Below, piece by piece: positions 32,146 to 64,000 of a DNA stretch of 64,000 nt; the stretch's first letter is position 1; each line of letters opens with the position of its first letter. This DNA is from Gammaproteobacteria bacterium (lineage in GTDB: Bacteria > Pseudomonadota > Gammaproteobacteria > JAABTG01). The position numbers were made by a program, and so were the translations under genes. The stretch is from the NCBI GenBank assembly GCA_017999615.1, contig JAGNLM010000001.1, positions 614,739 to 678,738 on the forward strand, given 5' to 3'. Below the pieces are notes generated by a model. It worked only from the letters and a program-made list of their open reading frames with translations. It did not search any database and was not told where the DNA came from.

Positions 32146-32195
32146 GACCGGACCCCAAGGCTGGAATAACAGCACGACACTCGAGGAGGCTGGCT

Positions 32196-35081: not shown

Positions 35082-35873
35082 TTGTGGAAATCGACCGGAA
35101 GGCGTTGGGCTGTCGTGAGTGAATCGTCGCGGCGTGATTTCTTGATCAAGGCGGCCCAGGGCACGGCTCTGGCGGCGACGGGCGGCTTGGTCTGGTGGTT
35201 CCTGCTGCAGAATCAGGCGCGGGCCACGCCGTTCGCGATCCGCCCCCCGGGGGCGGGCACGGAGGCCGAGTTCAACGCGCTCTGCATCAAGTGTGGCCTG
35301 TGCCTGCCGGCGTGCCCCTACGGCACGCTGAAGCTGGCGGCCGCGGGTGAGTCCATCCCCATCGGCACCCCGTACTTCTTGCCCCGGGACGTGCCCTGCT
35401 ACATGTGCCCGGACATCCCCTGCAAGGTGGCCTGTCCCACGGGGGCCCTCGATCCGGGGCTCACGGACATCAACCAGGCGCGCATGGGGCTGGCGGTCAT
35501 CGACATCGAGAGCTGCCTGTCCTGGCAGGGTCTGCGGTGCGAGGTTTGCCACCGGGAATGCCCGGTGTCGAACCAGGCGATCACGGTCGCTCACCACCCG
35601 CGCAAGACCAGCAAGCACGCTGTGTTCGTACCGCTGGTGCACAGCGAGCACTGCACCGGTTGCGGGGTGTGCGAGAAGGCGTGCCCGACGGACGTGCCGG
35701 CCATCCGCATCGTCCAGGCGGACCTCGTGCAGGGAAAGATGGGGGCGCACTACCGGCTCGGGTGGACCATCGACACCCCGATCACCCAGGAGTTCGTGCC
35801 GGCCCAGGAGGCGGGCCCGGCCGGACCGGGGCGCGATACGACCGGGGCCGGCATCGATTATCTGAATGACTGA
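35082..35873 (+). CDS. napG: NapG, periplasmic ferredoxin-type 4x[4Fe-4S] protein
   Basis: Tat motif SRRDFL, four Cys clusters (CIKCGLCLPACP, CYMCPDIPCKVACP, CEVCHRECP, CTGCGVCEKACP); alternative GTG start at 35115. Confidence 0.85.
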   Translation: MWKSTGRRWAVVSESSRRDFLIKAAQGTALAATGGLVWWFLLQNQARATPFAIRPPGAGTEAEFNALCIKCGLCLPACPYGTLKLAAAGESIPIGTPYFLPRDVPCYMCPDIPCKVACPTGALDPGLTDINQARMGLAVIDIESCLSWQGLRCEVCHRECPVSNQAITVAHHPRKTSKHAVFVPLVHSEHCTGCGVCEKACPTDVPAIRIVQADLVQGKMGAHYRLGWTIDTPITQEFVPAQEAGPAGPGRDTTGAGIDYLND

Positions 35874-35881
35874 GCGGAGTC

Positions 35882-43384: not shown

Positions 43385-44588
43385 CGCTCGTTCCGGTGCG
43401 GCCGCCGCGACCCTTGCGGTGCTGCTCCTGTCGGTTCCTGCCGCCGCGGTTCCCGGCGCGGTTCCCGGCTCGGGTCCCGGATCGGTTCCCGGCGCAGGGC
43501 CGCGTGAGCGGCCGGCGCAGGGCTTGGCGGCCCCGGAAGGTTCGCCTGTCGCGAGGGCCATCGATATGCGCGCAGTGCCCGCCCTGGAGCGGATCATCCC
43601 ACGTCTGGACCGGACGCGGGTCGTGTTCGTCGGGGAGACTCACGACCGTCTCGACCACCACCTGAACCAGTTCGAGGTGATCCGGGGCCTCCACGCGCGG
43701 CGCCGGGCGATCGCCATCGGCATGGAACAGTTCCAGCAGCCTTTCCAGGGTGTGCTCGACGACTACGTGGCGGGCCGCGTCTCCGAGCGCGAGATGCTGG
43801 AGCGTACGGAGTACTTCGAGCGCTGGCGCTTCGACTACCGCCTGTACCGGCCCATCCTGCAGTACGCCCGGGAGCACGGCATCCCCTTGGTCGCCCTGAA
43901 CGTTCCCGCCGAGATCACCACGAAGATCGGCCGGGAGGGCCTCGGGGGTCTGAGCGAGGCCGAGCGCGCCCAGGTGCCCGCGGAGATCGACCGCAGCGAC
44001 GAGGCCTACCACGCGCGGCTGCGCACCATCTTCGATCAGCACCCGAGGGGCGGCGAGCAGAGCTTCGAGCGCTGGCTCGAGGTGCAGCTGACCTGGGACG
44101 AGGGCATGGCCGAGTGCGCCGCCCGTTACCTCGCAGAGAACCCCCGCCGCACGCTGGTCGTGCTGGCCGGTTCCGGGCATCTCACCTACCGCTCGGGGAT
44201 CCCCAACCGGGTGGCACGCCGTTCGGGTGTCTCCGGAATGGTGCTCCTGCCCATGGACGGTGTGGCGCTCGAGCCCGAGGTGGGCGACTTCCTCCTGACC
44301 TCCCCGTCGCGGAGCCTGCCCCCGTCGGGCCGGCTGGGGGTGGGAATCGAGACGCAGGAGGGCCGGGTGCGGGTGGCGTCCGTGGAAGCGAACAGCGGCG
44401 CGCAGGAGGCGGGGATGCGGGAAGGCGACGAGATCGTCGCCATCGACGGTCATCCGGTCGCGCGGTTCTCGGACGTGCGCCTCGCGCTCTGGGATCGGTC
44501 GGCCGGTGAGCAGTCCACGGTCGAGGTCCTTCGCCGGCGCTGGATCGGCCCGGACGAGCCAGCGACGCTCACGGTCACGTTGCGCTAG
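43374..44588 (+). CDS. ChaN-family (DUF399, Tiki/TraB-like) protein fused to a C-terminal PDZ domain, secreted
   Basis: Signal peptide MNLIARSGAAAATLAVLLLSVPAAA; ChaN motifs VVFVGETHD and VVLAGSGH; C-terminal PDZ (GVGIE...G.RVASV...SGAQEAGMREGDEIVAIDG). Confidence 0.7.
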   Translation: MNLIARSGAAAATLAVLLLSVPAAAVPGAVPGSGPGSVPGAGPRERPAQGLAAPEGSPVARAIDMRAVPALERIIPRLDRTRVVFVGETHDRLDHHLNQFEVIRGLHARRRAIAIGMEQFQQPFQGVLDDYVAGRVSEREMLERTEYFERWRFDYRLYRPILQYAREHGIPLVALNVPAEITTKIGREGLGGLSEAERAQVPAEIDRSDEAYHARLRTIFDQHPRGGEQSFERWLEVQLTWDEGMAECAARYLAENPRRTLVVLAGSGHLTYRSGIPNRVARRSGVSGMVLLPMDGVALEPEVGDFLLTSPSRSLPPSGRLGVGIETQEGRVRVASVEANSGAQEAGMREGDEIVAIDGHPVARFSDVRLALWDRSAGEQSTVEVLRRRWIGPDEPATLTVTLR

Positions 44589-44661: not shown

Positions 44662-45912
44662 TCACGGGCGGTACATGGGGCAGGCCGAGACGCGGCGGTC
44701 GACCTCGTCGAGCACCTCCTGGTAGGCGGGGCTCCCGACCTCGCCGTACCGGCGCCGGAGCTCGATTTCGGAGAGGTACTCGGGCAGGCCGTCGACCGCC
44801 GGCATGAAATCGGCCTCCGTGGTCTGCGCCGCCAGCCGGGCCCGCCACGCACGCGCGGTGTCGGGCGAGCGCACGGCAAGCTCGCCGAAGCGAGTCCCGG
44901 CCCGGTCCGCGGCCAGGTCCGTGAAGCTGAAGCCGCTGCCGCCACGGGCGTCGGCGAGCTCCTTGGAGAGCCCGAGGGCCTCGGAGACCGCGCTGCCGGA
45001 GGCCGCGGTGACCGCGGCAGACGTGAGGAAGTGCTGGGCGAGGTCGACCCGGCCCCGCAGGACCAGACGCACGCCGCGCCGGGGAGCGGCCTCGGCGTCG
45101 GGCGCGAGCAGGCGCAGGTCCTTGCCGAGGGCGTGGGCGGCGAGGACGACCAGGAGGGCCCGGTTCTCGGCCGCCGGGTCGTCCCCTGCGGGCTCCACCC
45201 CGGTGAGGTCACGGAGAGCGCTCGCAAGCGGCAAGGACCGGCCGGCAGGCACGGCGGCGAGGGATGCGAGGAGTCTGCGCTGGAACTCCATCAGGCGCTC
45301 CCGGTCGGCGGGCGGCACGAGCTGGTCCCGCGCGGCACCGACCAGGTCGGGCCGCCACTCGTAGCGGACTCGGAGCGCGTCGGGCGCGACCTGGACCTCG
45401 CGCACCGATTCCCGGGCGATGCGAAAGCCCGGCTCCTTGGCCAGTTGTTCCCACGTCCGCCGCCAGGCCCAGGCGGCGAGGGCGTCCGGAACGGGTACCC
45501 GACCGACCCGCAGGTCGCCGAGGGAGAGCTCGGCGCCCCTCGCGCGCAGGGTCGCCTCGACGTTCAGGAAACGCCCCGCCGGGTTCTCGGGCAGCTCGCG
45601 GCTGCCGACCAGACGCACCTCACCGGTCCCGAGGGTCGCCCGCGTCGCGGCCATCCCGACGCGCTGACCCAGGTAACCCACCAGCGCGTTCACGTCCTGG
45701 GCGCTCAGGGAGAGCGTGCGGTCGCCCGATTCCGGCTGCCGCCGGGGGTCGTGCTCGCGCAGCATGCGCTCGGCCCGGGTGAGCTCCTCCGGCGAGAGAG
45801 GGGCGACGTTGGTGACGAGGGGTTGGTCGTCCAGGGCCAGCACCAGCAACAGCCCGGCGGCGGCCAGGGCGATGGCGGGGAGGAACAGGACCAGGCGCAG
45901 GATCAGTCGCAT
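44662..45912 (-). CDS. hypothetical membrane-anchored periplasmic protein
   Basis: N-terminal TM anchor MRLILRLVLFLPAIALAAAGLLLVLAL; no family recognised by eye. The ORF upstream of MRLIL reads as GC-frame noise, so the start was set at 45912. Confidence 0.45.
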   Translation of the reverse strand: MRLILRLVLFLPAIALAAAGLLLVLALDDQPLVTNVAPLSPEELTRAERMLREHDPRRQPESGDRTLSLSAQDVNALVGYLGQRVGMAATRATLGTGEVRLVGSRELPENPAGRFLNVEATLRARGAELSLGDLRVGRVPVPDALAAWAWRRTWEQLAKEPGFRIARESVREVQVAPDALRVRYEWRPDLVGAARDQLVPPADRERLMEFQRRLLASLAAVPAGRSLPLASALRDLTGVEPAGDDPAAENRALLVVLAAHALGKDLRLLAPDAEAAPRRGVRLVLRGRVDLAQHFLTSAAVTAASGSAVSEALGLSKELADARGGSGFSFTDLAADRAGTRFGELAVRSPDTARAWRARLAAQTTEADFMPAVDGLPEYLSEIELRRRYGEVGSPAYQEVLDEVDRRVSACPMYRP

Positions 45913-45978
45913 GGCAGGCACCCTGGCGTCGACGGTTGGGGCACCGTAGGATCGCGCCCGTTTTCGGAGGGGTCGGCA

Positions 45979-46542
45979 ATGAAGGCAAGCGAGCTCAAGC
46001 GGGGCACGGTAGTCTCCATCGAGGGCCGCGCGTACATGGTACGCGAGGTGAGCGTCCAATCGCCCTCCTCGCGCAGTGGAAACACCCTGTACAAGGTCCA
46101 GTTCCGTGAAGTGGTGACCCGCCAGAAGCTCGAGCAGTCCTACCGGGGCGACGACGACCTGCAGGAGGTGTCGTTCGAGCGCCGGCCGGTGCAGCTCCTG
46201 TTCCGGGAAGTGGACTCCTGCACCTTCATGGACCTGGAGGACTACCAGCAGTACCCGATGGACCACGAGGCGATTGCCGCCGAACTGCCCTATCTCGTGG
46301 ACGGACTCACGGGCCTCTACGCCCTGGTCTCGGAAGGTACCGTGCTCGGGCTCGAGCTTCCGGCGACGGTCGAGCTGGAGATCGTGGACTGCGCCCCTTC
46401 GCTGAAGGGCGCTTCGGCGTCCGCTCGGACCAAGCCGGCCACTCTCTCCACGGGCCTCGTCGTCCAGGTGCCGGAGTACATCGCCCCAGGAGAGCGGGTG
46501 CGGGTGAACACGGTCACCGGCGAGTTCATGGCGCGGGCCTGA
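45979..46542 (+). CDS. yeiP: elongation factor P-like protein YeiP (EfpL)
   Basis: MKASELKRGTVV...EGR.Y.V.E......G.G......K.......L.......D, EF-P family KOW/OB domains, about 187 aa. Confidence 0.85.
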   Translation: MKASELKRGTVVSIEGRAYMVREVSVQSPSSRSGNTLYKVQFREVVTRQKLEQSYRGDDDLQEVSFERRPVQLLFREVDSCTFMDLEDYQQYPMDHEAIAAELPYLVDGLTGLYALVSEGTVLGLELPATVELEIVDCAPSLKGASASARTKPATLSTGLVVQVPEYIAPGERVRVNTVTGEFMARA

Positions 46543-51169: not shown

Positions 51170-52180
51170 TCACTCCCGAGTTGAGTGGAGCCGCTCCAGC
51201 CACCGCGCGTCGTGCTCCTGGGCGTACTGCTGGTAGGCGGTGCGCTGTCCGATCTCCACGGTGATCTCGCGCAACAGGTATCCGCCCACGAGCACGAGGA
51301 GCGGTGCGGCGAGGAACCAGAGGCAGATCCCCCTCAGCTCGAGCACCTCGAGCCCGAGCGGCACCAGGAGCCCCAGGCCCACGAACAGGACCCAGAAGGC
51401 CAGCGCCTGCTCGCCGAAGAACACCTCGCGGGCGGCCTCCACCTGGACCGCGCTGCCCGTCGCGAGGCTCACCAGCAGGAGGGCGACGAGCACGAGCTCG
51501 GCCAGGATGAGGCCGATGTCGATGCGGGTGAAGAGGGTCTTCTCCTCGTGGTGGAAGCGGGCCGCGAGGACGATGAGCGCCGCCGCGGTGGAGAGCCCCG
51601 ACACGAGGAAGAGCGGCCCGAGGACGCCGGAGTTCCAGAAGGGCCGGGCGTTGAAGGCGCTCAACAGGATCCCGGTGTAGACCCCGAGCGCGGCGCCGGA
51701 GACGAGGGTCGCCGCCGCGATGGGGCGGCGTGTCCGCTCGGCCGCATCGATCAGGGCGGACATGCCGGGCACCCGGGCCGCCTGGGCGGCGAGCGCGGGA
51801 TAGCCGGCCCGCAGGCTTGCGAGGATGAGGGCGATGCTGGCCGGGTAGACGAGGAGGAGGAACCAGGCGCCCCAGGACATGGGCGAGGTCGGCTCGAAGG
51901 TGGTGTAGAAGCGGTAGACGTAGAGCTTGTGGGAGAGGTCGAGGAACAGGAACAGCATCCCCGCGGAGAGCACCAGGGGGGCCAGCAGGATCGCCTGCCG
52001 GCCGGCGAAGGGCGACTGCTCCTCGCGCCGGGTGAGCACGATGACCGCGGCGAATACCATGAGCCCGGCGGTGAGCCCCCCGAGGTAGAGGTAGAGCGGG
52101 ATCTCCCAGCCCCAGACGGAGAGCACCGGGTCGATGCCGGGGTTGTGGCGCAGCGTGACGAGCAGCTCTTCGGTGGCCAT
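51170..52180 (-). CDS. NrfD/PsrC-family integral membrane quinol-interacting subunit
   Basis: Eight or more TM helices and the conserved W-x-x-P.YLYLGG N-terminal motif of PsrC/NrfD/DmsC-family anchors. Confidence 0.8.
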   Translation of the reverse strand: MATEELLVTLRHNPGIDPVLSVWGWEIPLYLYLGGLTAGLMVFAAVIVLTRREEQSPFAGRQAILLAPLVLSAGMLFLFLDLSHKLYVYRFYTTFEPTSPMSWGAWFLLLVYPASIALILASLRAGYPALAAQAARVPGMSALIDAAERTRRPIAAATLVSGAALGVYTGILLSAFNARPFWNSGVLGPLFLVSGLSTAAALIVLAARFHHEEKTLFTRIDIGLILAELVLVALLLVSLATGSAVQVEAAREVFFGEQALAFWVLFVGLGLLVPLGLEVLELRGICLWFLAAPLLVLVGGYLLREITVEIGQRTAYQQYAQEHDARWLERLHSTRE

Positions 52181-52723
52181 CTAGGTGAGGTAGTACACGT
52201 TGGGCTGGTTGCCGGTCTCCGGGAGCAAGACCTTCCAGGGGCGGGTCGCCAGCAGGCGGCTCACCGTGCTCGCGGGGTCGTCGAGCACGCCGAAGTGCAT
52301 GCAGTGCGTGGGGCAGGTCGCGACACACGCCGGGTCGAGTCCGCGCTCCACGCGGTGCGCGCAGAAGGTGCACTTGTCCACGTAGCCGTCGGGGCGCATC
52401 ACCAGGCGCGCGTCGTAGGGGCAGGCCGCGATGCAGGCCTTGCAGCCCGTGCACTTCTCGGGTGCCACCAGCACGATGTTGGTGTCGCCCCAGAAGTGGC
52501 TCGCGCCGGTGGGGCAGGTGTACACGCAGGTGGCATGCGAGCAGTGGTTGCAGCGCTCGCTGCGAAACTCTGTGCGGAGCTCGGGGTAACGGCCGTGGGT
52601 GGCCTCGACGACCCAGTCACGGTTCAGGCCGTCGGGGACGCGGTTCTCGGTCTTGCAGGCGACCACGCAGTCCCCGCAGCCGATGCACAGCCGGGTGTCG
52701 ATCACCATTGCGTAGCGGGTCAC
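52181..52723 (-). CDS. 4x[4Fe-4S] ferredoxin-type subunit (PsrB/DmsB-like)
   Basis: CIGCGDCVVACK, CNHCSHATCVYTCP, CTGCKACIAACP, CTFCAHRVERG...CVATCP clusters. Confidence 0.85.
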   Translation of the reverse strand: MTRYAMVIDTRLCIGCGDCVVACKTENRVPDGLNRDWVVEATHGRYPELRTEFRSERCNHCSHATCVYTCPTGASHFWGDTNIVLVAPEKCTGCKACIAACPYDARLVMRPDGYVDKCTFCAHRVERGLDPACVATCPTHCMHFGVLDDPASTVSRLLATRPWKVLLPETGNQPNVYYLT

Positions 52724-54966
52724 GCCGGCGTGTCCTCCGCCATCACGGTCACGAAATTCGCACGCATGCCCGTGCCGCCCATCAGCGGGTCGACCTTCAC
52801 CCGCGTCATCAGGCCCGTGTCGTCAGCCCCGGCCCCGCGGGCGAGGTTGAGCCCGGGCGCGGTGTGGCCGAAGCCGTGGGCGAGGTACACGCAGTCGGGG
52901 CGGATCCGCTCGGTGACGCGCACGCGCACCGGCAGGCTCACCGCGCCGTCCTGGTTCTTCAGGCGCACCCGTTGCCCGCTCGCGAGGCCGCGCGGACGGG
53001 CGGCGTCCGGGTGCACCCACAGGGTGTTCTCCGGCATCAACTGGAAGAGCAGCGGGTTGTTGCCGGTGCGCCCGAAGGTGTGGGCGGGCGCGCGGCCGTA
53101 GACGAGGCGCAGGAAGCCAGCGGGCGTCTCCTCGGGCGGGGTGTAGCGGGGCAGGGGGTCGAGCCCGGCCTTCGCGAGCTCCGTGGAATGGAGCTCGATC
53201 TTGCCCGTCGGTGTCCGGAAGCGCACCGCCTGTCCCGGCGTGAAGTACGCTGCGGTCTTGCGCGGGAAGCGCTTGAGCCCCACGCGCTGCATCTCCGCGA
53301 GGGAACTGCCGACCTGCTGCAACTGCCAGTCCAGCACCTCCGCGTAGTCTTGCCACGGGAACCAGGCGCCGAGCCCCAGGCGGTGGCCCAGCTCGCGCGC
53401 GATCCACCAGGCCGGCTTCGTCTCGTAGCGGGGGGCTAGCGCAGGCATGCGCAGGGCGAGGGAGGGCTCGCGCTCGGGGGCGTTGCGCAGCTCGTCGTAG
53501 CGCTCCAGGTAGGTGCACTCGGGCAGGACGACGTCCGCGTACCCCGTCACCTCGGCGGGCTGCACGTCCACGACGACGAAGAGGTCCAGTTTCTGCGAGG
53601 CCTCCTCGAGCTTGCCGGTGACCGCGGGGATGCTGAGTGGAAGGTTCGTGCCGTAGACGATCCAGCCCCGATAGTAAGGCCGCTCACCCACCGAGGCGTC
53701 GATGACGGCGTTGGTGACGTCGGCGTCGGCGAACGGGAACCCCCCGCGCCGGGCCTGGAGGTCCGCCGCCTTCGACTTGGGGTAGGGCGGCGTCGGGTAT
53801 TCCGGCAGGCTCACCTTCTCCGGCGCGTAGAAGCCGCCCGGCCGGCCCCAGGACCCGAGAAGCGCGTTCAGGATGGCGATGGCCCGGCTGCGCTGGGTGT
53901 CGTCCCCGTACCACGTGACGTGGCGGCCCGGGTGCACCAGGGTCGCGGGGGCGTGCCGCGCCATCTCGCGGGCGGTCTCGCGGATCACCTGCGGGTCGAT
54001 GCCCGTCTCGAGCCAGGCCCACTCGGGGGTGAACGGCTCGACGTGCCGGGTCAGCTCGGCGAGGCCGTGGCAGTAGCGCTGGACGTAGTCGCGGTCGTAG
54101 AGCCCCTCGCCCACGATGACGTGCGTCCAGGCGAGCAGGAGCGCCAGATCGGTGCCCGGGCGGATCGGCAGCCAGTACCGGGACTTCGCGGCGGCGACCG
54201 AGAACCTCGGGTCGACCGTGATGACGCTGGCACCGGCCTCGATCGCCCCGATGAAGTCCTGCACCTGCCCGTTGTGCAGGTTCTCCCCGAGGTGCGAGCC
54301 GATCAGCACGATGCAGCGCGAGCGTGCCATGTCGGTGCGCTCGGGGGAGCCGAGCAGCTCCCCGAAGGTCAGCCGGAAGCCGACGTCGCGCGGACCCCGA
54401 CACTGGGCGAAGGAGGGCGCGGCGTAGGTGTCCGCGCCATAGGCCCGCAGCAGGTGTCGGAAGAAGGCCCCGCCGGAGCCGTGGCTGAAGAGCGCGACCC
54501 GCTCGGGGCCGTGCTCCCTCGCGATCCGCTGCAGGCGCTCGGCGATGTAACCGAGCGCTTCGTCCCAGGAGACGGGCCGGAAGCGCTGCTGCCCGGGCTT
54601 CCCTTCGCGCAGCAGCGGCTGGCGCAGCCGGCTCGGGTCGTCCCAAGCCCCCGGTCCGGCGGTGCCCCGGGTACACAAGCGCCCGCCCGAGTGCGGGTCG
54701 TCCGGGTGGCCGCTGACCTTCCAGGGCCGCCCGTCGTGCACGTGGGCGTAGCCCGCGCACCTCCAGAAGCACACCTCGCAGACGGTCGGGGTGACCACCG
54801 CCTCCGAGTCCCGGGGCACGCGGGGCTCGACCCCGCAGCCGGGGAGCGCCCCCGTGGCGGCACCGAGTCCGGCGGCGCCGGATATCCGGATGAAGTCACG
54901 CCGTTTCAAGTTCTTCGGGCTCTCGAAAAAGGTCGGAGATCGATGGGGTGCCCCGCAAGGGGACAC
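52720..54966 (-). CDS. Tat-exported molybdopterin (Mo-bisPGD) oxidoreductase catalytic subunit, Psr/Phs/Sre-like
   Basis: Twin-arginine signal KRRDFIRISGAAGLGAATG; N-terminal FeS-binding CEVCFWRCAGY....C...; 748 aa, the size of polysulfide/thiosulfate reductase A subunits. Confidence 0.8.
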   Translation of the reverse strand: MSPCGAPHRSPTFFESPKNLKRRDFIRISGAAGLGAATGALPGCGVEPRVPRDSEAVVTPTVCEVCFWRCAGYAHVHDGRPWKVSGHPDDPHSGGRLCTRGTAGPGAWDDPSRLRQPLLREGKPGQQRFRPVSWDEALGYIAERLQRIAREHGPERVALFSHGSGGAFFRHLLRAYGADTYAAPSFAQCRGPRDVGFRLTFGELLGSPERTDMARSRCIVLIGSHLGENLHNGQVQDFIGAIEAGASVITVDPRFSVAAAKSRYWLPIRPGTDLALLLAWTHVIVGEGLYDRDYVQRYCHGLAELTRHVEPFTPEWAWLETGIDPQVIRETAREMARHAPATLVHPGRHVTWYGDDTQRSRAIAILNALLGSWGRPGGFYAPEKVSLPEYPTPPYPKSKAADLQARRGGFPFADADVTNAVIDASVGERPYYRGWIVYGTNLPLSIPAVTGKLEEASQKLDLFVVVDVQPAEVTGYADVVLPECTYLERYDELRNAPEREPSLALRMPALAPRYETKPAWWIARELGHRLGLGAWFPWQDYAEVLDWQLQQVGSSLAEMQRVGLKRFPRKTAAYFTPGQAVRFRTPTGKIELHSTELAKAGLDPLPRYTPPEETPAGFLRLVYGRAPAHTFGRTGNNPLLFQLMPENTLWVHPDAARPRGLASGQRVRLKNQDGAVSLPVRVRVTERIRPDCVYLAHGFGHTAPGLNLARGAGADDTGLMTRVKVDPLMGGTGMRANFVTVMAEDTPA

Positions 54967-55006: not shown

Positions 55007-56308
55007 TCACTCGAAGACGTAGCTGCCGTCGCCCTTGATGGTGAGCGCGTCGTTCAGGAAGCGCACCTGGTCGTAGCCGAGCTTCTTCAGGAACTGGTAC
55101 GCCATCTCGGAGCGGGATCCGTTGGTGCAATAGGCGACGATGGGACGGTCCTTCGGCAGCGACGAGGGATCCGCCTGCAGCTTGTCGAGGGGCAGGTGCG
55201 TCGAGCCCTTCAGCACACCCATCGCGGCCTCCTTGGCGTCGCGCACGTCCAGCAGCAGCGCGTTGCCGGGCGCGGCGACCACTTTCGCGAACTCCTCGGT
55301 CGACAGCGAGCCTTCCTTCGGCTTCTTCGTGTAGGCGATCTGGGTCGGGGCTTCGCCGGTGACCGTCGGCCGGCCCTCCTTCACCCACGCCTGGTAGCCG
55401 CCCCCGAGGATCGTGGCGTTCTTGTAGCGGTACTTCTTCAGCTCCGCGAACGCGGTGAGGACGTCCTCGCCGTTGTCCGTGTTGCCATAGACCACGATGG
55501 GCGCCCCCATGTCGGCCACGCCCGGGAGCCTCGCCGGTGCCTTCTCGGCGATGAATTTCTGGGTCATCGCGGGGAACGCCGCGGACTCGATCGACACCGC
55601 CCCCGGCAGGTGCCCTGCGGCCACCTCCGCCTTCGGGCGCACGTCGATGACGACGTGATGCGGGTCGAGGTGGGCCGCGACCCACTCGGGTACCGAGGTC
55701 ACCGGCTTGCCGGCCTTCTTCCACGCGGGAATGCCGGCCTGGAAGCCCTTCAGGTTGGTGTGGCCGGCCTTGGTGGCGATCTCGATGGAGCTGCCCGTGT
55801 AGGGACAGGTGGGACCACCACAATAGAAGATGACCATCGTGCCCTTGTCGGTGGGCAGCTTGTCCAGGTTGTTCGGCAGGTCCTTCCAGAAGATCTGGAT
55901 GGCGCCCGGGATGTGCCCTTCGAGGTACGGTCCCTTCGGGCGGGCGTCGACTAGCAGGAACGGGTCCTTGCCGGCGCGGATCCGCTCGAGCTCCTCCATG
56001 CTGATCTCGGCCCCGGGCGGAAGGGCGAACACCACCTTGGTGATCCGGGTGGCCGGCTGACCGGGCGTGTGCTCGACCTTGATCAGGTCCGGGGTGCCGA
56101 GCTCCTTGATGCCCGCCGCGTTGACGAACTCGGTCTGCGGACCGAAGAGCACGACCTGGGACTTTCCGCTCACCTCGACCTGGATGGTGTTGGCCTTGTT
56201 CGAGATGTCTTCGATGCGGCCCTCCACGGTGTCGGCCCGGGCGGTCGGGACCAGGGCGAGCAGGGCGGCGAGCAGGGCGGAGAGGGGCGTCGGGCGCGGG
56301 ATCGACAT
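55007..56308 (-). CDS. periplasmic multi-rhodanese protein (three rhodanese domains, the middle one Cys-less)
   Basis: Signal peptide; rhodanese 1 active loop FYCGGPTCPY, rhodanese 2 with YGNTDNGED replacing the Cys loop, rhodanese 3 YCTNGSRSEMAY; unknown N-terminal domain of about 110 aa. Confidence 0.75.
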   Translation of the reverse strand: MSIPRPTPLSALLAALLALVPTARADTVEGRIEDISNKANTIQVEVSGKSQVVLFGPQTEFVNAAGIKELGTPDLIKVEHTPGQPATRITKVVFALPPGAEISMEELERIRAGKDPFLLVDARPKGPYLEGHIPGAIQIFWKDLPNNLDKLPTDKGTMVIFYCGGPTCPYTGSSIEIATKAGHTNLKGFQAGIPAWKKAGKPVTSVPEWVAAHLDPHHVVIDVRPKAEVAAGHLPGAVSIESAAFPAMTQKFIAEKAPARLPGVADMGAPIVVYGNTDNGEDVLTAFAELKKYRYKNATILGGGYQAWVKEGRPTVTGEAPTQIAYTKKPKEGSLSTEEFAKVVAAPGNALLLDVRDAKEAAMGVLKGSTHLPLDKLQADPSSLPKDRPIVAYCTNGSRSEMAYQFLKKLGYDQVRFLNDALTIKGDGSYVFE

Positions 56309-56463: not shown

Positions 56464-57768
56464 TCACTCGAGGACGTAGCTGCCATCGCCCTTGATCACC
56501 AGTGACTCGTTCAGGAAGCGGACCTTCTCGAAGCCGTTCTTCTTCAGGAAGTCGTACGCCATCTCCGAGCGAATGCCGTTGCTGCAGTAGGTGATGACGG
56601 GCTTGTCCTTCGCCAGGACGGACGGGTCGGCCTGAAGGCGGTCGATGGGGATGTGCAGCGCTCCCGGCAATTTGCCGCCTGCCACCTCCTTGTCCTCGCG
56701 CACGTCCACCAGGATCGTGTCGCCCCGGTTCTCGACCAGCTTCGCGAACTCGTCCCGGGACACCGCGCCGGGCTTCAGCTTCTTCACGTAGCTGATCTGC
56801 GTCGTGGCCGCCCCCGCCTCGATCGGCAGGCCCTGCTTCACCCATTCGGGGTAACCCCCCTTCAGGATGGCGGCGTTCTTGTACTGGTACTTCTTCAGCT
56901 CCCCGTAGGCCGTGAGCACGTCCTGCCCGTTCTCGGTGTCCCCGTACACGACGATGGGAGCCGCCATGTCGGCGACACCCGGCAACCGGGCCACCTGCTT
57001 CTCGGCGACGAACTTCTGGGTCATCGCAGGGAACTCCGCAGCCTCCATCGCCACGGCCCCTTTGACATGACCTTTGGCCGATTCGGCCTTCGCGCGCACG
57101 TCGATCACCACGGTGTTCGGGCCGAGACCGGCGGCGACCCACGAGGGGCTGGCGACGACCGGCTTGCCGGCCTTCTTCCAGGCGGGAATTCCGGCCTGGA
57201 AACCCTTCAGGTTCGTGTGGCCGGCCTTGGCCGCGATCTCGATGGACTGCCCCGTGTACGGGCAGGTCGGGCCGCCGCAGTAGAAGATGAGCATCACCCC
57301 CTTGTCGGCCGGCAGCTCGTTCAGGCGGTTCGGCAAGTCCTTCGGGAAGATGTTGATGCTGCCCGGCAGGTGCCCCGTGACATATTGCTTCTCGGGACGG
57401 GCGTCCACGAGGACGAAGGGTTCCTTGCCCGCGCGAATCGCCTCGAGCTCCTGCAGGCTCACCTCCGCTCCGGGTGGCAGGCCGAAGACCACCTTGGTGA
57501 TCCTGGTCGCGGGCTTGCCGGGGGCGTACTCGACCTCGATCAGGTCCGGCGAGCCGAGGTCCTTCACGCTGGCCGCGTTCACGTACTGCGTCTCCGGTCC
57601 GAAGAGAACCGTGACCGGCGGCTGGCCTTCGGGGGTCAGCTTGATGGTGGACCCCTTGTTGGAGATGTCGTCGATGCGGCCCTTGACGGTGTCCGCACCA
57701 GCGCCGGCCGACAGCGCGAGGCCGCCGGTCAAGACGAGGACGAGGCAGGTGATTCGCCTGTGGGACAT
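56464..57768 (-). CDS. paralog of the multi-rhodanese protein (tandem duplicate, about 70% identical by eye)
   Basis: Same architecture: FYCGGPTCPY, YGDTENGQD, YCSNGIRSEMAY; collinear with the downstream copy. Confidence 0.75.
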   Translation of the reverse strand: MSHRRITCLVLVLTGGLALSAGAGADTVKGRIDDISNKGSTIKLTPEGQPPVTVLFGPETQYVNAASVKDLGSPDLIEVEYAPGKPATRITKVVFGLPPGAEVSLQELEAIRAGKEPFVLVDARPEKQYVTGHLPGSINIFPKDLPNRLNELPADKGVMLIFYCGGPTCPYTGQSIEIAAKAGHTNLKGFQAGIPAWKKAGKPVVASPSWVAAGLGPNTVVIDVRAKAESAKGHVKGAVAMEAAEFPAMTQKFVAEKQVARLPGVADMAAPIVVYGDTENGQDVLTAYGELKKYQYKNAAILKGGYPEWVKQGLPIEAGAATTQISYVKKLKPGAVSRDEFAKLVENRGDTILVDVREDKEVAGGKLPGALHIPIDRLQADPSVLAKDKPVITYCSNGIRSEMAYDFLKKNGFEKVRFLNESLVIKGDGSYVLE

Positions 57769-57858: not shown

Positions 57859-59835
57859 CTAGGGGAGGAGGCAGTTTGCGGTGGGGTCGGTCGGCGTGGG
57901 TGGGCAGACGAAGGCGAGCACCCCGCCGTCAGGTCGGACCTCGATGCGCAGGTCCTGCAGGCGAGAGAGCACGTCCATCCCGAGCACCGGCTTCCAGTGG
58001 CTGTCCGCGGAGGCACAGGCGAGCGCCCGCACGCCGGGCAACACGCAGGAACCGATGCGCAGTCCTTCGAGGAGGTAGTGCCTTGCCTCGGCGCCACCAC
58101 CGTGGATGAGCTCCACGTTCACTTCCCCGAGGGGCAGCGCCCGGTTGCGCCCGCACATGCGCTGCAGGTGCGGGTGGGGGAGCACGGTGACGGCCGAGCC
58201 GGTGTCGAGCAGCAACGAGAGGTCCGGGTCCTGCACGCAGCCCACGAGCCGGACCGGGACGTGCAGCAGTCCCTCGCGCAGGGTGAGGGGCACGCGCTCG
58301 GGACCGTTGCGCTCGGCAGGGGCCTCGCCGGGCGGGGGAGCGGCCGACGGAGCGGACGGGGGAGCGGACGGGGGAGCGGACGGGGTAGCGGGCGGGGGAG
58401 CGGGCGGCGTGCCGTGGCAGCTCCCGCAGGCCCGCGCCGGCCCCACCGTGTGCGGGCTGATGGGCACGAGCTCGCGCCACGACCGCACCGCCGCGGGCCC
58501 GCCAGCGGGAGGCGGGAACTCCGCGCTCATGGCCATGCCGGGGACGAAGGGTGCGATGCGCCCGTCGGGTCGCTCCCCGAGGTTCGGCACGACGGGCTGC
58601 ATCTTCCCGCGGTCCGCGAGCCAGCGCCCGGGGGTCAGCCGGCGCTCGTGATGGTCCCACTGCTCGGCGCCCGGCTCGAAGCGCACGTGGCAGCCCTCGC
58701 ACTGGGGCGCCCACTGGCTGTGGCAGGCCTCGCAGGTGAGGCGAGCGTGCTCGCGCGCGTATGGGTGGGCGGGCATCCGCGCCTTTCCGCCCTCGCGGTG
58801 GCAGTCCTCGCAGACGGGACCGGCCTTCCCCGCCAGGCCCATCACCTGGGTCCCGCGGTGACAGTCGACGCAGCGCATTCCCGCCCGGTGGTGGGCGTCG
58901 CCCGGGACGCGCTCCACCAGTCGGCCGTCGGGGAGCCGCCCCAGGCGTGACCGGTCCACCCGTGCGAGCGCGGACTCGTCCACCTCGGCGAGGCCGGAGT
59001 AGGCGAGGGCCATGCGCGTGGCGCGGGAGTGACAGCCGAAGCAGCGCTCGTCCCGCACCCGGGCGGAGAGCTCGGCGTGCGCACCCGCGGGGTAGTCGTT
59101 CAGGTGGCAGGCGAGGCACCCGCCCCCGCGGTCGCGCACCGGGTCGAGCGCGTGCCGGGCCTTGGGGTGCGCGATGTGGCAACTCGCGCAGAGCTTGCGA
59201 AAGAGCGAGTCGGCCGGTGACTGGCCGAGGCTGGCGACGCCCGCGGCCGCCGCCGGGGCGGACTTCCGATCGCCTGCGGGGGCCTCGCCAAAGGCCTGCC
59301 GGTTGCCCGTCACCATCCCGCGCAGGGTCGCCATGGGACTCGCGCGCACACCGGCCAGCTCTGCCGGGTGACAGCGCCCGCAGGTCCGCTCCGCGTTCTC
59401 CAGGTTCCCCGGGAAGGCGACGAGCCCGGCGTGCGCGAGCTCCCGTGTCGCGGCCGCGGCGTCGCCGGCGTGGCAGGCGGTGCAGTCTCCCGCAGCGAAG
59501 GCATGTCCCGCCGGGTGGCCCTGGTCGCGGACGGGGTGGCAGCCGAGGCATCCGGGGACGGCGGCTGCGGCCACCGCTTCGAGGCCGAGAAGGGCCGTGA
59601 GGGGCAGGGCGGTGAGGGCCAGGGGCGTCAGCACGAGGGGCGCCAGGGTGAGGAGCGCGAGGGCCAGGAGCGGCGCGCGCACGCTCCCGCCGGCGCGGCG
59701 GTCCGACCGGCCCGGGCTCCCCGCAAGCGGGGCCACGAATGGAGCCGCGCTTCGCCTCCCCGCAGATTTGCGCCAGATCAAGTGGCCTGCATCTTGGTCA
59801 AGGACCTGGTGGACGCACTCCGGTTCGTCACTCAT
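57859..59835 (-). CDS. undecaheme c-type cytochrome fused to a C-terminal retropepsin-like (clan AA) aspartic protease domain
   Basis: 11 CxxCH motifs; Pro/Ser/Ala linker PPAPPPATPSAPPSAPPSAPSAAPPP; C-terminal domain with LLLDTGSAV and VLGMDVL retropepsin signatures; hydrophobic low-complexity N-terminus. Alternative in-frame GTG start at 59682. Confidence 0.65.
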   Translation of the reverse strand: MSDEPECVHQVLDQDAGHLIWRKSAGRRSAAPFVAPLAGSPGRSDRRAGGSVRAPLLALALLTLAPLVLTPLALTALPLTALLGLEAVAAAAVPGCLGCHPVRDQGHPAGHAFAAGDCTACHAGDAAAATRELAHAGLVAFPGNLENAERTCGRCHPAELAGVRASPMATLRGMVTGNRQAFGEAPAGDRKSAPAAAAGVASLGQSPADSLFRKLCASCHIAHPKARHALDPVRDRGGGCLACHLNDYPAGAHAELSARVRDERCFGCHSRATRMALAYSGLAEVDESALARVDRSRLGRLPDGRLVERVPGDAHHRAGMRCVDCHRGTQVMGLAGKAGPVCEDCHREGGKARMPAHPYAREHARLTCEACHSQWAPQCEGCHVRFEPGAEQWDHHERRLTPGRWLADRGKMQPVVPNLGERPDGRIAPFVPGMAMSAEFPPPAGGPAAVRSWRELVPISPHTVGPARACGSCHGTPPAPPPATPSAPPSAPPSAPSAAPPPGEAPAERNGPERVPLTLREGLLHVPVRLVGCVQDPDLSLLLDTGSAVTVLPHPHLQRMCGRNRALPLGEVNVELIHGGGAEARHYLLEGLRIGSCVLPGVRALACASADSHWKPVLGMDVLSRLQDLRIEVRPDGGVLAFVCPPTPTDPTANCLLP

Positions 59836-59881
59836 GATTCCCTCACCGTCTTTGGGGTGATTTTCTTCAACAATAACCTGG

Positions 59882-61195
59882 ATGAATCGGATGGAGGTCG
59901 TCGTGCGCAGCCGCTCACTCGTCCTGACCCTCGCTCTCGTGCTGATCGGAGGTTTCCCGGCGCATTCGGCGTACGCCGCCCGTACGACGGCGGACGACGA
60001 GGCCGAAGAGCCGTTCCAGGGAAGGACCGTTCAGTATTATCGCCCGGAAGCTTGCAAGAAGTGCCACGAGGAAATCTACAACCAGTGGAAGTCCTCGATG
60101 CACGCGAAGAGCACGGCGCTGAAGGACCCCATCCACGAGGCGATGTACCAGATGGAGGTCGGCTCGCCGACGGAGGAGGGCGTCAAGCACAAGAAGTCTC
60201 AGACCTATCCGGTCTGCCTGCAGTGCCACGCGCCGGTCGCGGCGATGGAGAAGAAGACCAAGCTTGACGAGAAAGAGGCCTACAGCAACGGCGTCGGGTG
60301 CGTGGTGTGCCACTCCTTCGCCCACTTCAAGGGCATCAAGAAGCCGGACGGCAAGTACCAGCTCGGCCAGCTGGCCTATCAGGTCGACACCGAGCAGCTC
60401 TACGGGCCCTCCGGCATCTCCTACACCAAGAAGCGGGTGCCCAAAGGGTCTACGTGGCCGATTCCGGTCAACCACCCCCAGCCCATCAAGGGCAGCAAGG
60501 CGTCGCTCTTCAAGAGCAACGACCTCTGCATGGGATGCCACGACCAGCGCAACAACCCGAAGGAAGTGCCCCTCTGCATGACCGGCCCCGAGTACGAGAA
60601 GGGCAAGGCCTTCATCAACTGCCAGGCCTGCCACATGGCGCCGACCGAGGTGGTGAACAAGGACGGCGAGAAGGTCAAGGTGTTCGACCACACCATGGCC
60701 GGTGGGCACCACGACAAGATGATCACCCAGGGTGTCGCGTTGAGCATGGACGTGAAGCGCGAGGGGGACAATTTCAAGGTCGACATCACGCTGCGTAACC
60801 GCCTGCCGCACGCCTACCCGACCGGCGCGCCGTTCCGCAACGCCATCGTGCGGGTGGCCGCGTACGACAAGGACGGGAAGCTGCTGTGGCAGAACTACGA
60901 GAAGCACCCCTCCAAGGACGACCCCAAGGCCTTCCTCCTCCTCGCCCTCGGCAAGGACGGCAAGCCGGTGATGCCACCCGAGGCCACCGAGATCCTGAAC
61001 GACTCGCGCCTGCAGCCGGACGAGACCCGCGCGCTCGAGTACAGCTTCACCGCCGCGGGCGTCGGCATCGTGCGCACCGAGCTGCTCTACCACCTGCTGA
61101 CGCCGCCGGTGCTCGAGATGTTCGGGGACAAGCTGCCGGAAGAAGTGAAGAAGGCAAGGGTCGCGGCCTCGGCCGAGGAACGCTTCGAAAGCTGA
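59882..61195 (+). CDS. periplasmic pentaheme c-type cytochrome (NrfA/ONR/MccA-superfamily-like)
   Basis: Signal peptide ...AHSAYA; five CxxCH motifs (CKKCH, CLQCH, CVVCH, CMGCH, CQACH); N-terminal CKKCHEEIYNQWKSSMH and CQACHMAP resemble motifs of multiheme reductases. Confidence 0.7.
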   Translation: MNRMEVVVRSRSLVLTLALVLIGGFPAHSAYAARTTADDEAEEPFQGRTVQYYRPEACKKCHEEIYNQWKSSMHAKSTALKDPIHEAMYQMEVGSPTEEGVKHKKSQTYPVCLQCHAPVAAMEKKTKLDEKEAYSNGVGCVVCHSFAHFKGIKKPDGKYQLGQLAYQVDTEQLYGPSGISYTKKRVPKGSTWPIPVNHPQPIKGSKASLFKSNDLCMGCHDQRNNPKEVPLCMTGPEYEKGKAFINCQACHMAPTEVVNKDGEKVKVFDHTMAGGHHDKMITQGVALSMDVKREGDNFKVDITLRNRLPHAYPTGAPFRNAIVRVAAYDKDGKLLWQNYEKHPSKDDPKAFLLLALGKDGKPVMPPEATEILNDSRLQPDETRALEYSFTAAGVGIVRTELLYHLLTPPVLEMFGDKLPEEVKKARVAASAEERFES

Positions 61196-61305
61196 GGACC
61201 CCGGCGGCGAAACGCGGTTCCCGGGGCGGGCGGGGCGCCAGCACGCCCGCCCCGTGAGAGGCCGCAGCGGTCGGTCGAGCCCCACGGTATCGGTGGTCAG
61301 GAGGA

Positions 61306-62028
61306 TTGACGATGGTCTCGCTTGGAACATGGCTTCGGTCGCGCGCCCTGTGGAGCGGAGCCTGCCTGGTGGCCCTGCTGCCCCTCGCAGCGGTGGGTGA
61401 CGGGGCGAGCGACGAGGTGAGCGACAAGCCCGCGGTCGCCCGACCGGCGCCCCGCACCCTGGAGACGGTCCACCCGGAGGCGAACCCCGCCAAGACAGTG
61501 GACGGCCAGGCGCCGTTCGAGGAAGCCCCGCTGTTCCGGGTCGTCACCCGGAAGAAGGACTCGGACATGCACCCCTGCGGGGATTGCCACGACGAGACGC
61601 TGTCGGACTTCAAGCCGCGGGACCTGCAGCGGCCCCACGACGACTTCAAGCTCGAGCACGGGCTGCACGGCCGCGGCGAGTTCTGGTGCTTCACCTGCCA
61701 TCGCGTGAAGGGCACGGGCGGCCTGAAGACGATGGAGAGCGAGCGGCTCGGGTTCGACGACGCCTACGTCATCTGTTCCCAGTGCCACGCCCAGGAAGCC
61801 CGGGACTGGACCCACGGCGCCCACGGCAAGCGCGTGGGGGGCTGGGAGGGAGACCGCACGCTGCTCAGTTGCACCGTCTGCCACTTCCAGCACCGCCCGA
61901 AGATGGACCCGCGCAAGGCCGAGGAGCCTCCGCCGGTGCGCCGGGGCCTCCCTCGCCAGGACACCAATCCCCACGAGCCGTTGCCGGTGTGGGAGCGCCA
62001 CGGGGCCCAGGGCCCGGTGACCAAGTGA
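61306..62028 (+). CDS. periplasmic tetraheme c-type cytochrome
   Basis: Signal peptide; four CxxCH motifs (CGDCH, CFTCH, CSQCH, CTVCH); about 240 aa. Confidence 0.65.
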   Translation: MTMVSLGTWLRSRALWSGACLVALLPLAAVGDGASDEVSDKPAVARPAPRTLETVHPEANPAKTVDGQAPFEEAPLFRVVTRKKDSDMHPCGDCHDETLSDFKPRDLQRPHDDFKLEHGLHGRGEFWCFTCHRVKGTGGLKTMESERLGFDDAYVICSQCHAQEARDWTHGAHGKRVGGWEGDRTLLSCTVCHFQHRPKMDPRKAEEPPPVRRGLPRQDTNPHEPLPVWERHGAQGPVTK

Positions 62029-62082
62029 CCGGGTAACTCGGCGGCACCCAAACATCCGGATCGAACACGTACACGGACAACG

Positions 62083-63018
62083 TTGGCCATGAGCGACCAC
62101 GACCAGCACGACGACGCACCCGACCGCGCCCGCCGGCGCTTCCTGCAGCGGGTCGGTACCGTGGCAGCCGCAGCCGCGGCGGCCCCGGCGAGCGAGGGGG
62201 CCTGGGGCGGCAAGACCCTCGAGGACGCCCTGGGGGAGTTCTTCCAGGACAACTACCGGCGCATGACGCCGGAAGAGGTGAAGGAGGCGATCGGGCGCAT
62301 CGAGCGCCGGGCGAAGCGCCTGTACGGCGTGGACATCACCGTCGGCAACGAGCCGCCGCTGCCCGGGGTCGTCTTCGGGTACGCGATCAACGTCTCCAAG
62401 TGCCGCGGATACCGGGACTGCGTTCGCGCCTGCGGCGAGGAGAACAACCAGAGCCTCGACATGCAGTACATCCGGGTGCTGCAGCTCGACCAGGGCAGCC
62501 TGAACTTCGAGCAGGCCGAGCACTACTACCCGGGCGACCAGGTCCCGGTCGAGGGCAAGCACTACGTCCCGGTGCAGTGCCAGCAGTGCGACAACCCCCC
62601 GTGCGTGAAGGCCTGCCCGGTCGGCGCGACCTGGAAGGAGCCCGACGGCGTCGTGGTGGTCGACTACGACTGGTGCATCGGTTGCCGGTACTGCATGGCG
62701 GCCTGCCCTTACCAGGCCCGCGTGTTCAACTGGGGCGCGCCGGACCTGCCGGCCGAGCGCATCAACCCCAAGACCCACTACCTCGGCAACCGCCCGCGGC
62801 AGGCCGGATCGGTCGAGAAGTGCCACTTCTGCCTGCAGCGCACGCGCGTCGGCAAGCTGCCCGCCTGTCAGGAGGCCTGCCCGACCGGGGCACGGGTGTT
62901 CGGGAACCTGCTCGATCCGGAGAGCGAGATCCGCTACGTGCTCGAGCACAAGGTCGTCTTCCGGCTGAAGGAGGACGTGGGGACCGAGCCGAAATTCTGG
63001 TACTACCGGGACGTCTGA
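62083..63018 (+). CDS. Tat-exported 4x[4Fe-4S] ferredoxin-type protein (NrfC/HybA-like)
   Basis: Twin-arginine RRRFLQRVGTVAAAAAAA; Cys clusters CRGYRDCVRACGEEN, CQQCDNPPCVKACP, CIGCRYCMAACP, CHFCLQRTRVGKLPACQEACP. Confidence 0.8.
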   Translation: MAMSDHDQHDDAPDRARRRFLQRVGTVAAAAAAAPASEGAWGGKTLEDALGEFFQDNYRRMTPEEVKEAIGRIERRAKRLYGVDITVGNEPPLPGVVFGYAINVSKCRGYRDCVRACGEENNQSLDMQYIRVLQLDQGSLNFEQAEHYYPGDQVPVEGKHYVPVQCQQCDNPPCVKACPVGATWKEPDGVVVVDYDWCIGCRYCMAACPYQARVFNWGAPDLPAERINPKTHYLGNRPRQAGSVEKCHFCLQRTRVGKLPACQEACPTGARVFGNLLDPESEIRYVLEHKVVFRLKEDVGTEPKFWYYRDV

Positions 63019-63031
63019 GGAGGGGTGAGGC

Positions 63032-64000
63032 GTGGCCCTGTTTCGATTCCTTTCCAATGGAGTGCGGCATGCCTTCCGGGGCTCGCCGACCTACTGGGCG
63101 TGGCTGGGATTCCTGGTGCTGGTGATCGCGAACGGGCTGTGGGCCTATTCGCACCAGCTGTCCGAGGGGCTCATCGCCACGAACATGAGCAGCCAGGTCT
63201 CCTGGGGCTTCTACATCGCGAACTTCACCTACCTGGTGGGGGTCGCCGCGGCGGCCGTGCTGCTCGTCATTCCCGCCTACATCTTCCATCGCCAGGACGT
63301 GAAGGACGTGGTGCTGCTCGGCGACACCATGGCGGTCGCCGCGGTGATCATGGCGATCCTGTTCGTGGTGGTCGATCTGGGGCGGCCGGACCGCATCTGG
63401 CATCTGCTGCCGGGGGTTGGCATCTTCAACTTCCCGACCTCGATGCTGGCCTGGGACGTGGTGGTGCTCTCGGGCTACCTGCTGCTGAACCTCGGGATCT
63501 CGTTCTACATCGTCTACAGCCACTACCGCGGCCGCCAGCCGGTGCTGCGCTATTACTTCCCCTTCGTGCTGCTGGCGATGTTCTGGGCGATCTCCATCCA
63601 CACCGTGACGGCCTTCCTGTTCTCCGCGAACAGCGGCCGGCCGTTCTGGTCGAACCCGCTGCTCGCGCCGCGGTTCATCGCCTCTGCGTTCGCCTCGGGA
63701 CCCGCGCTCAGCATCATCGCCCTCACCATCGTGCGCAAGACGACGCGCTACCCCGTGCAGCAGAGCGTGATCGACATGCTCTCGGTGGTGATGACGGTGG
63801 CGCTCCAGATCACGCTCTTCTTCGTGGGCGCGGAGCTCTTCACCGAGTTCTACAACGAGGGGCACCACGCGGCGTCCGCGCGCTACCTGTTCCTCGGCCT
63901 GCACGGGCACGGCGTGCTGGTGCCCTGGATCTGGACGGGCATCGGGATGCTCGCGGTGGCGGTCTTCATCCTGATGGTCCACCCGCTTCGCCGGCAGCCG
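63032..64000 (+). CDS. NrfD-family integral membrane protein (partial; continues past the window end)
   Basis: Frame not listed in the ORF track because no stop occurs in the window. GAGGAGGGG ribosome-binding site then a GTG at 63032; the hand translation VALFRFLSNGVRHAFRGSPTYWAWLGFLVLV... shows many TM helices typical of NrfD/PsrC. Confidence 0.6.
   Translation, partial: MALFRFLSNGVRHAFRGSPTYWAWLGFLVLVIANGLWAYSHQLSEGLIATNMSSQVSWGFYIANFTYLVGVAAAAVLLVIPAYIFHRQDVKDVVLLGDTMAVAAVIMAILFVVVDLGRPDRIWHLLPGVGIFNFPTSMLAWDVVVLSGYLLLNLGISFYIVYSHYRGRQPVLRYYFPFVLLAMFWAISIHTVTAFLFSANSGRPFWSNPLLAPRFIASAFASGPALSIIALTIVRKTTRYPVQQSVIDMLSVVMTVALQITLFFVGAELFTEFYNEGHHAASARYLFLGLHGHGVLVPWIWTGIGMLAVAVFILMVHPLRRQP

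Follow-up and report, generated by a model that had tools for sequence, protein, structure and literature searches.

We analysed a 64,000-nucleotide stretch of DNA (the window) from a gammaproteobacterium of the lineage JAABTG01 (assembly GCA_017999615.1, contig JAGNLM010000001.1, positions 614,739 to 678,738 of the forward strand). It carries an open reading frame (ORF) in which an 11-haem c-type cytochrome, a Pro/Ser/Ala-rich linker and a retropepsin-like aspartic protease domain of clan AA are encoded as one protein (Table 1). The uninterrupted 658-codon frame on the minus strand was confirmed, and the protein holds exactly eleven CxxCH motifs, precisely those listed in an initial annotation of the window, all of them within the cytochrome domain. 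Guanine-cytosine (GC) content at the three codon positions of the ORF is 0.78/0.59/0.90, as in the neighbouring genes, in a window of 69% GC. The eleven haem motifs and the significant profile matches described below are far beyond chance. The ATG at 59835 is preceded at a distance of 3 nt by the Shine-Dalgarno sequence GAGGGA, and the first 24 residues are conserved in the related proteins P0001 and P0242 and partly in P0003, as is the motif MSDExxCVHQVLDQD..LIWRKS. Thus the long N-terminus is real, and the in-frame GTG at 59682, put forward initially as a possible start, was ruled out. The segment ahead of the hydrophobic stretch is probably cytoplasmic. The hydrophobic stretch itself, already ascribed to GC-rich quasi-repeats, is encoded by two in-frame GC-rich 15-bp repeats of 2.5 copies each (59591-59672), is 5 residues shorter in P0001 and would act either as a signal anchor or as a signal peptide of unusual length.

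Table 1. Features of the fused gene, its neighbours and one related locus. Positions refer to the window unless stated otherwise; aa, amino acids; GC3, GC content at third codon positions; pLDDT, predicted local distance difference test; EIAV, equine infectious anaemia virus; bisPGD, bis(pyranopterin guanine dinucleotide); FeS, iron-sulfur.
Feature	Position	Strand	Basis or remark
Whole fused ORF, 658 aa + stop	57859..59835	-	uninterrupted frame, GC3 0.90, Shine-Dalgarno
N-terminal segment ahead of the anchor, aa 1-53	59677..59835	-	conserved MSDExxCVHQVLDQD..LIWRKS motif
Hydrophobic Leu/Ala/Pro/Thr segment, aa 54-85	59581..59676	-	encoded by two 15-bp quasi-repeats
11-haem c-type cytochrome domain, aa 96-474	58414..59550	-	11 CxxCH, PF14537, PF14522, NF040943
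Pro/Ser/Ala-rich interdomain linker, aa 475-513	58297..58413	-	composition, tandem repeat, low pLDDT
Retropepsin-like (clan AA) domain, aa 514-658	57862..58296	-	profile matches, EIAV alignment, structure models
Catalytic motif D544-T-G-S within LLLDTGSAV	58195..58206	-	aligned to EIAV protease DTG
Predicted flap β-hairpin VELIHGGGAEARHYL, Gly-rich tip	58072..58116	-	model strands and conserved motif
LGMDVL, aa 618-623, counterpart of retroviral G-R-D/N, then a single short helix	57967..57984	-	
Triple-rhodanese protein, 434 aa, ExtH-like in size and domain content	56464..57768	-	downstream of the fused gene
Second triple-rhodanese paralogue, 433 aa, 67% identical to the first	55007..56308	-	
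PsrABC/PhsABC-like reductase genes	51170..54966	-	
Mo-bisPGD catalytic subunit	52720-54966	-	
4Fe-4S subunit	52181-52723	-	
NrfD/PsrC membrane subunit	51170-52180	-	
Divergent gene set	59882..64000	+	same divergent arrangement in L007-L011, L014
ExtKL-like/cytochrome c554-family 5-haem protein, 437 aa	59882-61195	+	5 CxxCH
4-haem 240-aa cytochrome	61306-62028	+	
DsrO-like FeS protein	62083-63018	+	
DsrP/NrfD-like membrane protein	from 63032	+	runs off the window
Insert replacing the protease in locus L015	9394-9495 of L015 (ENA ERZ25038436 NODE_549)		

The cytochrome part matches the profiles PF14537 and PF14522, and its best NCBIfam match is NF040943 (ExtM), with 134.6 bits over profile positions 16-306 of 599. 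This score lies far below the cutoff of 800 bits, so that membership in the ExtM equivalog was rejected; on the profile evidence the domain is a distant homologue of ExtM. The initial call of a multihaem cytochrome therefore stands as to its eleven haems, while the unclassified status that went with it does not. ExtM (GSU2935) belongs to the selenite/tellurite-reduction cluster extHIJKLMNOPQS of Geobacter sulfurreducens and has 12 haem motifs (PMC5877670). We found 11 in the window protein and in all nine homologues checked, out of more than 800 homologues of its cytochrome. Some distant ExtM-like homologues (P0008, P0014 and P0019) carry a different conserved C-terminal extension of ~90 residues past the last haem (ALGLGxGxL...DGLPADAW...RILDA), which is absent from the clade with a downstream or fused retropepsin-like gene.

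The linker consists of Pro, Ala or Ser at 29 of its 39 positions (16, 9 and 4 residues, respectively), in agreement with its first description. It is coded by an in-frame, GC-rich 12-bp tandem repeat of 6.6 copies (58329-58407) and is 16 residues shorter at the related locus L001. The repeat regions of linker and anchor both vary in length between the window and L001, which looks like protein-length variation driven by slippage. In the full-length structure model two separately folded parts are predicted, joined by a segment (residues 445-506) with pLDDT below 50.

For the C-terminal domain, profile searches gave a divided answer to the proposal that it belongs to a known retropepsin-like family. 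The isolated C-terminal 143 residues reach 30.5 bits with PF13975 (gag-asp_proteas), above the gathering score of 28.2, the full protein reaches 27.8, and PF13650 (Asp_protease_2) gives 23.8 bits against a gathering score of 24.3. Membership in TIGR02281 (clan_AA_DTGA) was rejected at 25.7 bits against a cutoff of 57.95; in comparison with that family, the domain has DTGS or DTGA as its motif and retains no membrane segment of its own at the N-terminus. The bacterial proteins of PF13975, PF13650 and TIGR02281 are the best sequence-profile matches of the domain. Both signatures named at the outset, LLLDTGSAV with Asp544 and LGMDVL, were located. A profile built from the subfamily described below, searched against the PDB, met the active site of the EIAV protease at E = 0.0055 with DTG aligned on DTG, so that D544 falls on the catalytic Asp. 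In the structure model m478aaa6eb300 the predicted strands E61-70 and E76-89 form a hairpin with a GGG tip at the flap position, followed after LGMD by a single short helix (H115-118). By its position this hairpin would be the flap; its motif is conserved in two alignments (A1 and A4), with the Gly-rich tip kept among the closer members. The domain shows the clan AA features, a single-lobe β-barrel of ~100-130 residues superimposable on the retroviral protease. Because of the alignment with the EIAV DTG, the model hairpin at the flap position and the helix after LGMD, we regard the assignment of the retropepsin fold and its motifs as settled at the level of the models.

The domain conforms to a Cys-rich, secreted retropepsin-like subfamily that we define here (P0121-P0127 and P0140-P0144) by the signature RDGLxxVxV..GC ... 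D[TS]G ... GxC ... LGM[DN] ... FxCP ... C (alignments A1 and A4). Its four invariant Cys residues, in GC, GxC, FxCP and the C-terminal C, fit an exported protein with stabilising disulfides, of the kind reported for the periplasmic Rlo retropepsins (PMC12239564). Standalone proteins of the subfamily span ~146-205 residues. The close ones, of 160-192 residues and 54-76% identical to the window domain, each bear their own signal peptide, whereas in the window protein this peptide is absent and the linker to the cytochrome stands in its place, a derived state. The standalone orthologues have precomputed matches to PF13975 and mostly to PF13650 as well. A HMMER search of 1.84 billion representative proteins with the subfamily profile gave six close matches (E < 1e-19; 99-205 residues, two of them fragments), then a gap in score and then generic Asp_protease_2/gag-asp_proteas proteins. 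The nearest outgroup (P0128-P0139) matches both PF13975 and PF13650 and has LLLDTGA and LGMDVL in common with the window domain. The subfamily is set apart from such proteins by score (at least 86 bits versus at most 52 bits) and by the four invariant Cys and a C-terminal CPxxPxxxxxxC tail, which are absent in the outgroup. It is a previously undescribed subfamily.

A joined frame across a GC-rich tandem repeat, a typical site of assembly error, could be suspected of being a sequencing or assembly artefact in which a frameshift or a collapse of the 12-bp repeat merged two genes. A public assembly indeed breaks ~70 bp upstream of the repeat: the contig L012 (ENA ERZ28615756 scaffold_24781) is 100% identical to window positions 58477-60601 over 2,125 bp in a BLAST comparison and continues as unrelated sequence. 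Its last 136 bp are the unrelated part and give rise to a spurious database protein of 470 residues (P0002), with the junction ~70 bp upstream of the repeat. P0002 was therefore rejected as an alternative reading diverging after residue 453; L012 is a chimeric scaffold end, not a frameshift, and is no evidence against the fusion. Furthermore, 273 indexed blocks of public assemblies contain the exact 658-residue protein, on contigs of up to 0.2-1 Mb, and the same neighbours were present in all 23 contigs read that carry it, for instance on a 128-kb wastewater contig. Further fused alleles exist, P0001/P0246 and P0245; only in-frame 48- and 33-bp indels and point changes separate them from the window, so that all length differences among fused alleles are multiples of three. 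P0001/P0246 are 82% identical to the window protein by BLASTP and 87% over the aligned columns of alignment A3; P0245, of the same 90% cluster, has a short linker and an intact first β-strand. Between the window and L001 the ratio of nonsynonymous to synonymous substitution rates (dN/dS, Nei-Gojobori) is 0.20 in the cytochrome and 0.19 in the protease domain, with purifying selection acting on either half, and 0.49 in the linker. Finally, the stop codon, at least 150 bp of intergenic sequence and the signal peptide that mark the unfused state are physically absent here, so an error of 1-2 bp could not account for the fusion. An artefact is thus extremely improbable and has effectively been refuted. 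None of the refuting tests proposed initially, that of a frameshift in the linker among them, overturned the call.

The unfused state itself was found, as predicted, in related genomes: an Ectothiorhodospiraceae metagenome-assembled genome and related metagenome contigs (L006, L007-L009, L010 and L013) carry the two genes side by side. Their order is an ExtM-like cytochrome of 486-498 residues, which ends just past the last haem, a stop codon, 150-440 bp, a retropepsin-like gene bearing a signal peptide, a triple rhodanese (434 residues) and a Mo-oxidoreductase. On the divergent side of these loci lie a c554-family cytochrome, a 241-residue protein, an FeS protein and an NrfD-type protein. In the junction alignment neither the window nor L001 has the stop codon, any of the intergenic region or the signal-peptide codons; a short Pro-rich segment takes their place. 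This indicates that the fusion arose by deletion between adjacent genes of an operon and that the linker later expanded by repeat slippage. The protease domain is 73% identical between the window and the L007 lineage and the cytochrome part ~55-61%. Measured against outgroups, the fused domain has diverged no further than its standalone orthologues, and this relative-rate comparison together with the dN/dS values ruled out relaxed selection after fusion. A separate protease made from an internal start was also rejected: the only GTG in frame close to the domain boundary (V of ERVPL) is not preceded by a suitably spaced Shine-Dalgarno sequence, and the product would also be devoid of an export signal.

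As far as the sequences searched show, the fusion is confined to a narrow lineage. Among the 120 listed whole-protein matches only P0001 also matches PF13975, no other cytochrome-protease fusion being seen, and the CxxCH motif occurs in none of the 106 representative matches to the subfamily profile. Profile searches with the subfamily alignment gave no confirmed locus in metagenome contigs and only L013 in genome contigs. A full-text search of the available literature library returned no paper linking retropepsins to multihaem cytochromes or rhodaneses. The bacterial clan AA domain itself is already known; the architecture, the Cys-rich subfamily and its association with this operon are new here.

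The fused gene lies in a region correctly described before as a sulfur/anaerobic-respiration island, with PsrABC/PhsABC-like, rhodanese, DsrO/DsrP-like and NapAGH genes. The downstream triple rhodanese is syntenic in all related loci; two rhodanese copies are present in the fused lineages (window, L001 and L014) and one, before the Mo-oxidoreductase, in the split loci L007-L010. In both paralogues the active-site Cys seems to be missing from the middle rhodanese domain, as read by eye from the translation. The gap that separates the fused gene from the first rhodanese gene is richer in AT and holds a promoter-like TTTACA-18-CATAGT. The neighbouring pentahaem gene announced on the divergent side was found at the expected distance, with 46 bp between the listed start codons; its product scores 78.9 bits as an ExtKL-like cytochrome against a cutoff of 250. 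If this gene starts at a GTG after GGAGG, as in the 430-residue call for L014, the gap would be ~67 bp (59836-59902). With so short a gap both promoters would have to overlap coding sequence. Farther upstream, within 31831-36850 (+), there is a cluster of NapA (913 residues), NapG and NapH, then MoeA and a two-component system. The window starts with a trigger factor gene in the region 1222-9317 (+), and the genes after it look like clpP-clpX-lon-hupB-ppiD, judged from size and order alone. Two ORFs on the minus strand (41129-43597, 822 residues, and 44662-46266, 534 residues) have gene-like GC3 and gave no NCBIfam match at E <= 1e-15.

Taken together, the sequences and models establish a genuine fusion with an ExtM-like cytochrome, its origin, the retropepsin fold with intact motifs, purifying selection and the operon linkage. 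To the further reading, in which the fused domain is a still-working periplasmic aspartic protease that acts on the same respiratory module, we give a probability of about 0.5. The ancestral neighbours would have been a membrane-anchored, periplasm-facing 11-haem cytochrome and a small secreted, probably disulfide-stabilised retropepsin-like protease. A deletion that took the stop codon of the cytochrome, the intergenic region and the signal peptide of the protease created the single ORF. The protease domain would now be exported through the N-terminal signal of the cytochrome, either type II-anchored or Sec-exported, and would hang on a flexible Pro-rich tether of ~40 residues whose length varies through the 12-bp repeat. 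Like other retropepsins it is expected to be active as a homodimer with one Asp544 contributed by each chain. Its candidate substrates in the periplasm are the components of the module, namely the ExtM-like and ExtKL-like cytochromes, the ExtH-like rhodaneses and the PsrABC-like reductase, which it may mature, trim or turn over. It could work while tethered or cut itself free first, as APRc of Rickettsia conorii and the retroviral enzymes do.

Several observations weigh against this reading. The sequence-profile scores are borderline (27.8 bits with PF13975 for the full protein against 28.2, and a TIGR02281 score far under its cutoff), and the Pro-rich linker offers no obvious hydrophobic cleavage site of the retropepsin type, judged by known cleavage preferences. 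In P0001/P0246 an in-frame 33-bp deletion (window-equivalent 58255-58287) removes 11 residues (PLTLREGLLHV), that is, the first protease β-strand, which in retropepsins forms part of the dimer platform. The coverage of L001 is only 1.2x; P0246, on another contig, has the same deletion, which in L001 is flanked by CGT.CC microhomology. At the loci L015-L017, with flanks ~94.5% identical to L001, ~102 bp of unrelated DNA stand in place of the ~478-bp linker and protease segment and give the cytochrome another tail, of 30 residues. This loss implies, from the sequence comparison, that the protease module is dispensable in at least some backgrounds. Upstream of the cytochrome these loci have genes for polysaccharide export, a Wzz-like protein and an MtrB/PioB-like barrel in place of the divergent ExtKL-like operon, and they may represent a rearranged or second locus. 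In addition, a distant ExtM-like locus with rhodaneses and Mo-oxidoreductases (L022) has no retropepsin-like gene, which would make the protease a clade-specific accessory. Subfamily members also occur away from cytochromes: the genes adjacent in L002-L004 are an RND (resistance-nodulation-division) pump and an NnrS/pentapeptide-repeat set, and L019 adjoins pucC.

The last three points, with the narrowness of the fused lineage, would suit a tolerated accident, in which a near-neutral deletion joined two neighbours that do not cooperate; the protease would then serve in general periplasmic housekeeping, or have little role, and merely survive its tethering. In its favour the module was lost outright in L015-L017 with the flanking genes otherwise unchanged. 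We consider such an accident unlikely: several lineages without the fusion keep cytochrome, protease and rhodanese in this order, the fused domain is under purifying selection as strong as that on the cytochrome and has not evolved faster since the fusion, and the linker indels are all in-frame. Moreover, subfamily genes lie beside or near rhodanese genes at L002/L003, L005, L006, L007-L010 and L018, and this adjacency recurs even for a member only ~30% identical.

A second alternative grants the domain a function but not catalysis: the retropepsin fold would only dimerise or bind peptide, thereby pairing two 11-haem cytochromes or docking a partner. This seems rather improbable to us, since all subfamily sequences that cover the site have D[TS]G, across 30-76% identity, LGM[DN] is nearly invariant and the closer members keep the Gly-rich tip of the hairpin; LGMDVL is likewise nearly invariant in 19 bacterial homologues. 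The catalytic Asp thus passed the check proposed for it. Furthermore, the ancestral form was a free secreted protein, for which a pure role in dimerising cytochromes makes no sense.

Beyond the working-protease reading we propose, as a speculative extension, that a periplasmic sulfur/selenium respiratory module has in the retropepsin-like protein a protease of its own for processing or regulation. The fused form would then be a bacterial 'polyprotein': exported behind the cytochrome, the protease would dimerise and cleave itself or a partner. If true, this would be the first case of an aspartic protease that forms part of respiratory electron transfer. When operon neighbours are fused in nature, this counts among the stronger genomic arguments that they work together, and here it directs the Cys-rich subfamily to concrete and tractable candidates: an 11-haem cytochrome, multi-rhodanese proteins and a Psr/Phs-type molybdoenzyme. 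For multihaem cytochromes in general, proteolytic maturation or enforced dimerisation may form part of the assembly of the electron-transfer chain. The significance is bounded by the narrow lineage, the dispensability of the module in a sister lineage and an activity that is predicted only. The organism of the window appears to be common in wastewater metagenomes, so that material and meta-omic data on expression should exist.

Compared with the ext cluster of Geobacter, the window shares a 5-haem ExtKL-like cytochrome and ExtH-sized (~49 kDa) multi-rhodanese proteins next to the ExtM-like protein. Geobacter ExtM has 12 haems and no protease domain, whereas the window protein has 11 haems and the retropepsin-like domain. 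In Geobacter, ExtKL is a selenocysteine-containing protein spread over two annotated genes (PMC5877670), while its counterpart here is one uninterrupted 437-residue ORF. The porin ExtI, ExtN, the Rieske protein ExtO, the cytochrome b ExtP, ExtQ and ExtS are not among the 10 neighbouring genes scanned; PsrABC-like and DsrOP-like modules are the partners instead.

In the retroviral Gag-Pro-Pol precursor the retropepsin sits inside a larger protein behind unrelated domains, dimerises for activity and can then excise itself. The likeness to the window protein is one of analogy only, since the partner domain is not homologous and the window protein is a cellular, exported respiratory protein. Among the many retropepsin-like proteases of bacteria, the few with a known role include PerP and SpoIIGA. 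Further ones are APRc (PMC4140852), RloA (PMC12239564) and RimB, and substrates are known for even fewer. APRc, or ApRick (RC1339), of R. conorii (PDB 5c9b/5c9f) is membrane-anchored and dimeric and autoprocesses from N-terminal fusions (PMC4140852). It is only 15-18% identical to the window domain, its N-terminal part consists of three transmembrane helices rather than a cytochrome, and it resides in the outer membrane of an intracellular pathogen, where it processes autotransporters; it has neither the Cys pattern of the subfamily nor an operon link to respiration. The RloA, RloA2 and RloA3 peptidases of Pseudomonas (PDB 9g59 and others) are secreted, dimeric, disulfide-stapled periplasmic proteins, with a disulfide conserved only in the exported forms (PMC12239564). 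As signal-peptide-bearing periplasmic dimers, they and Lpg0085 of Legionella (2pma) parallel the standalone ancestors (P0121-P0126) of the domain that is fused to the cytochrome in the window.

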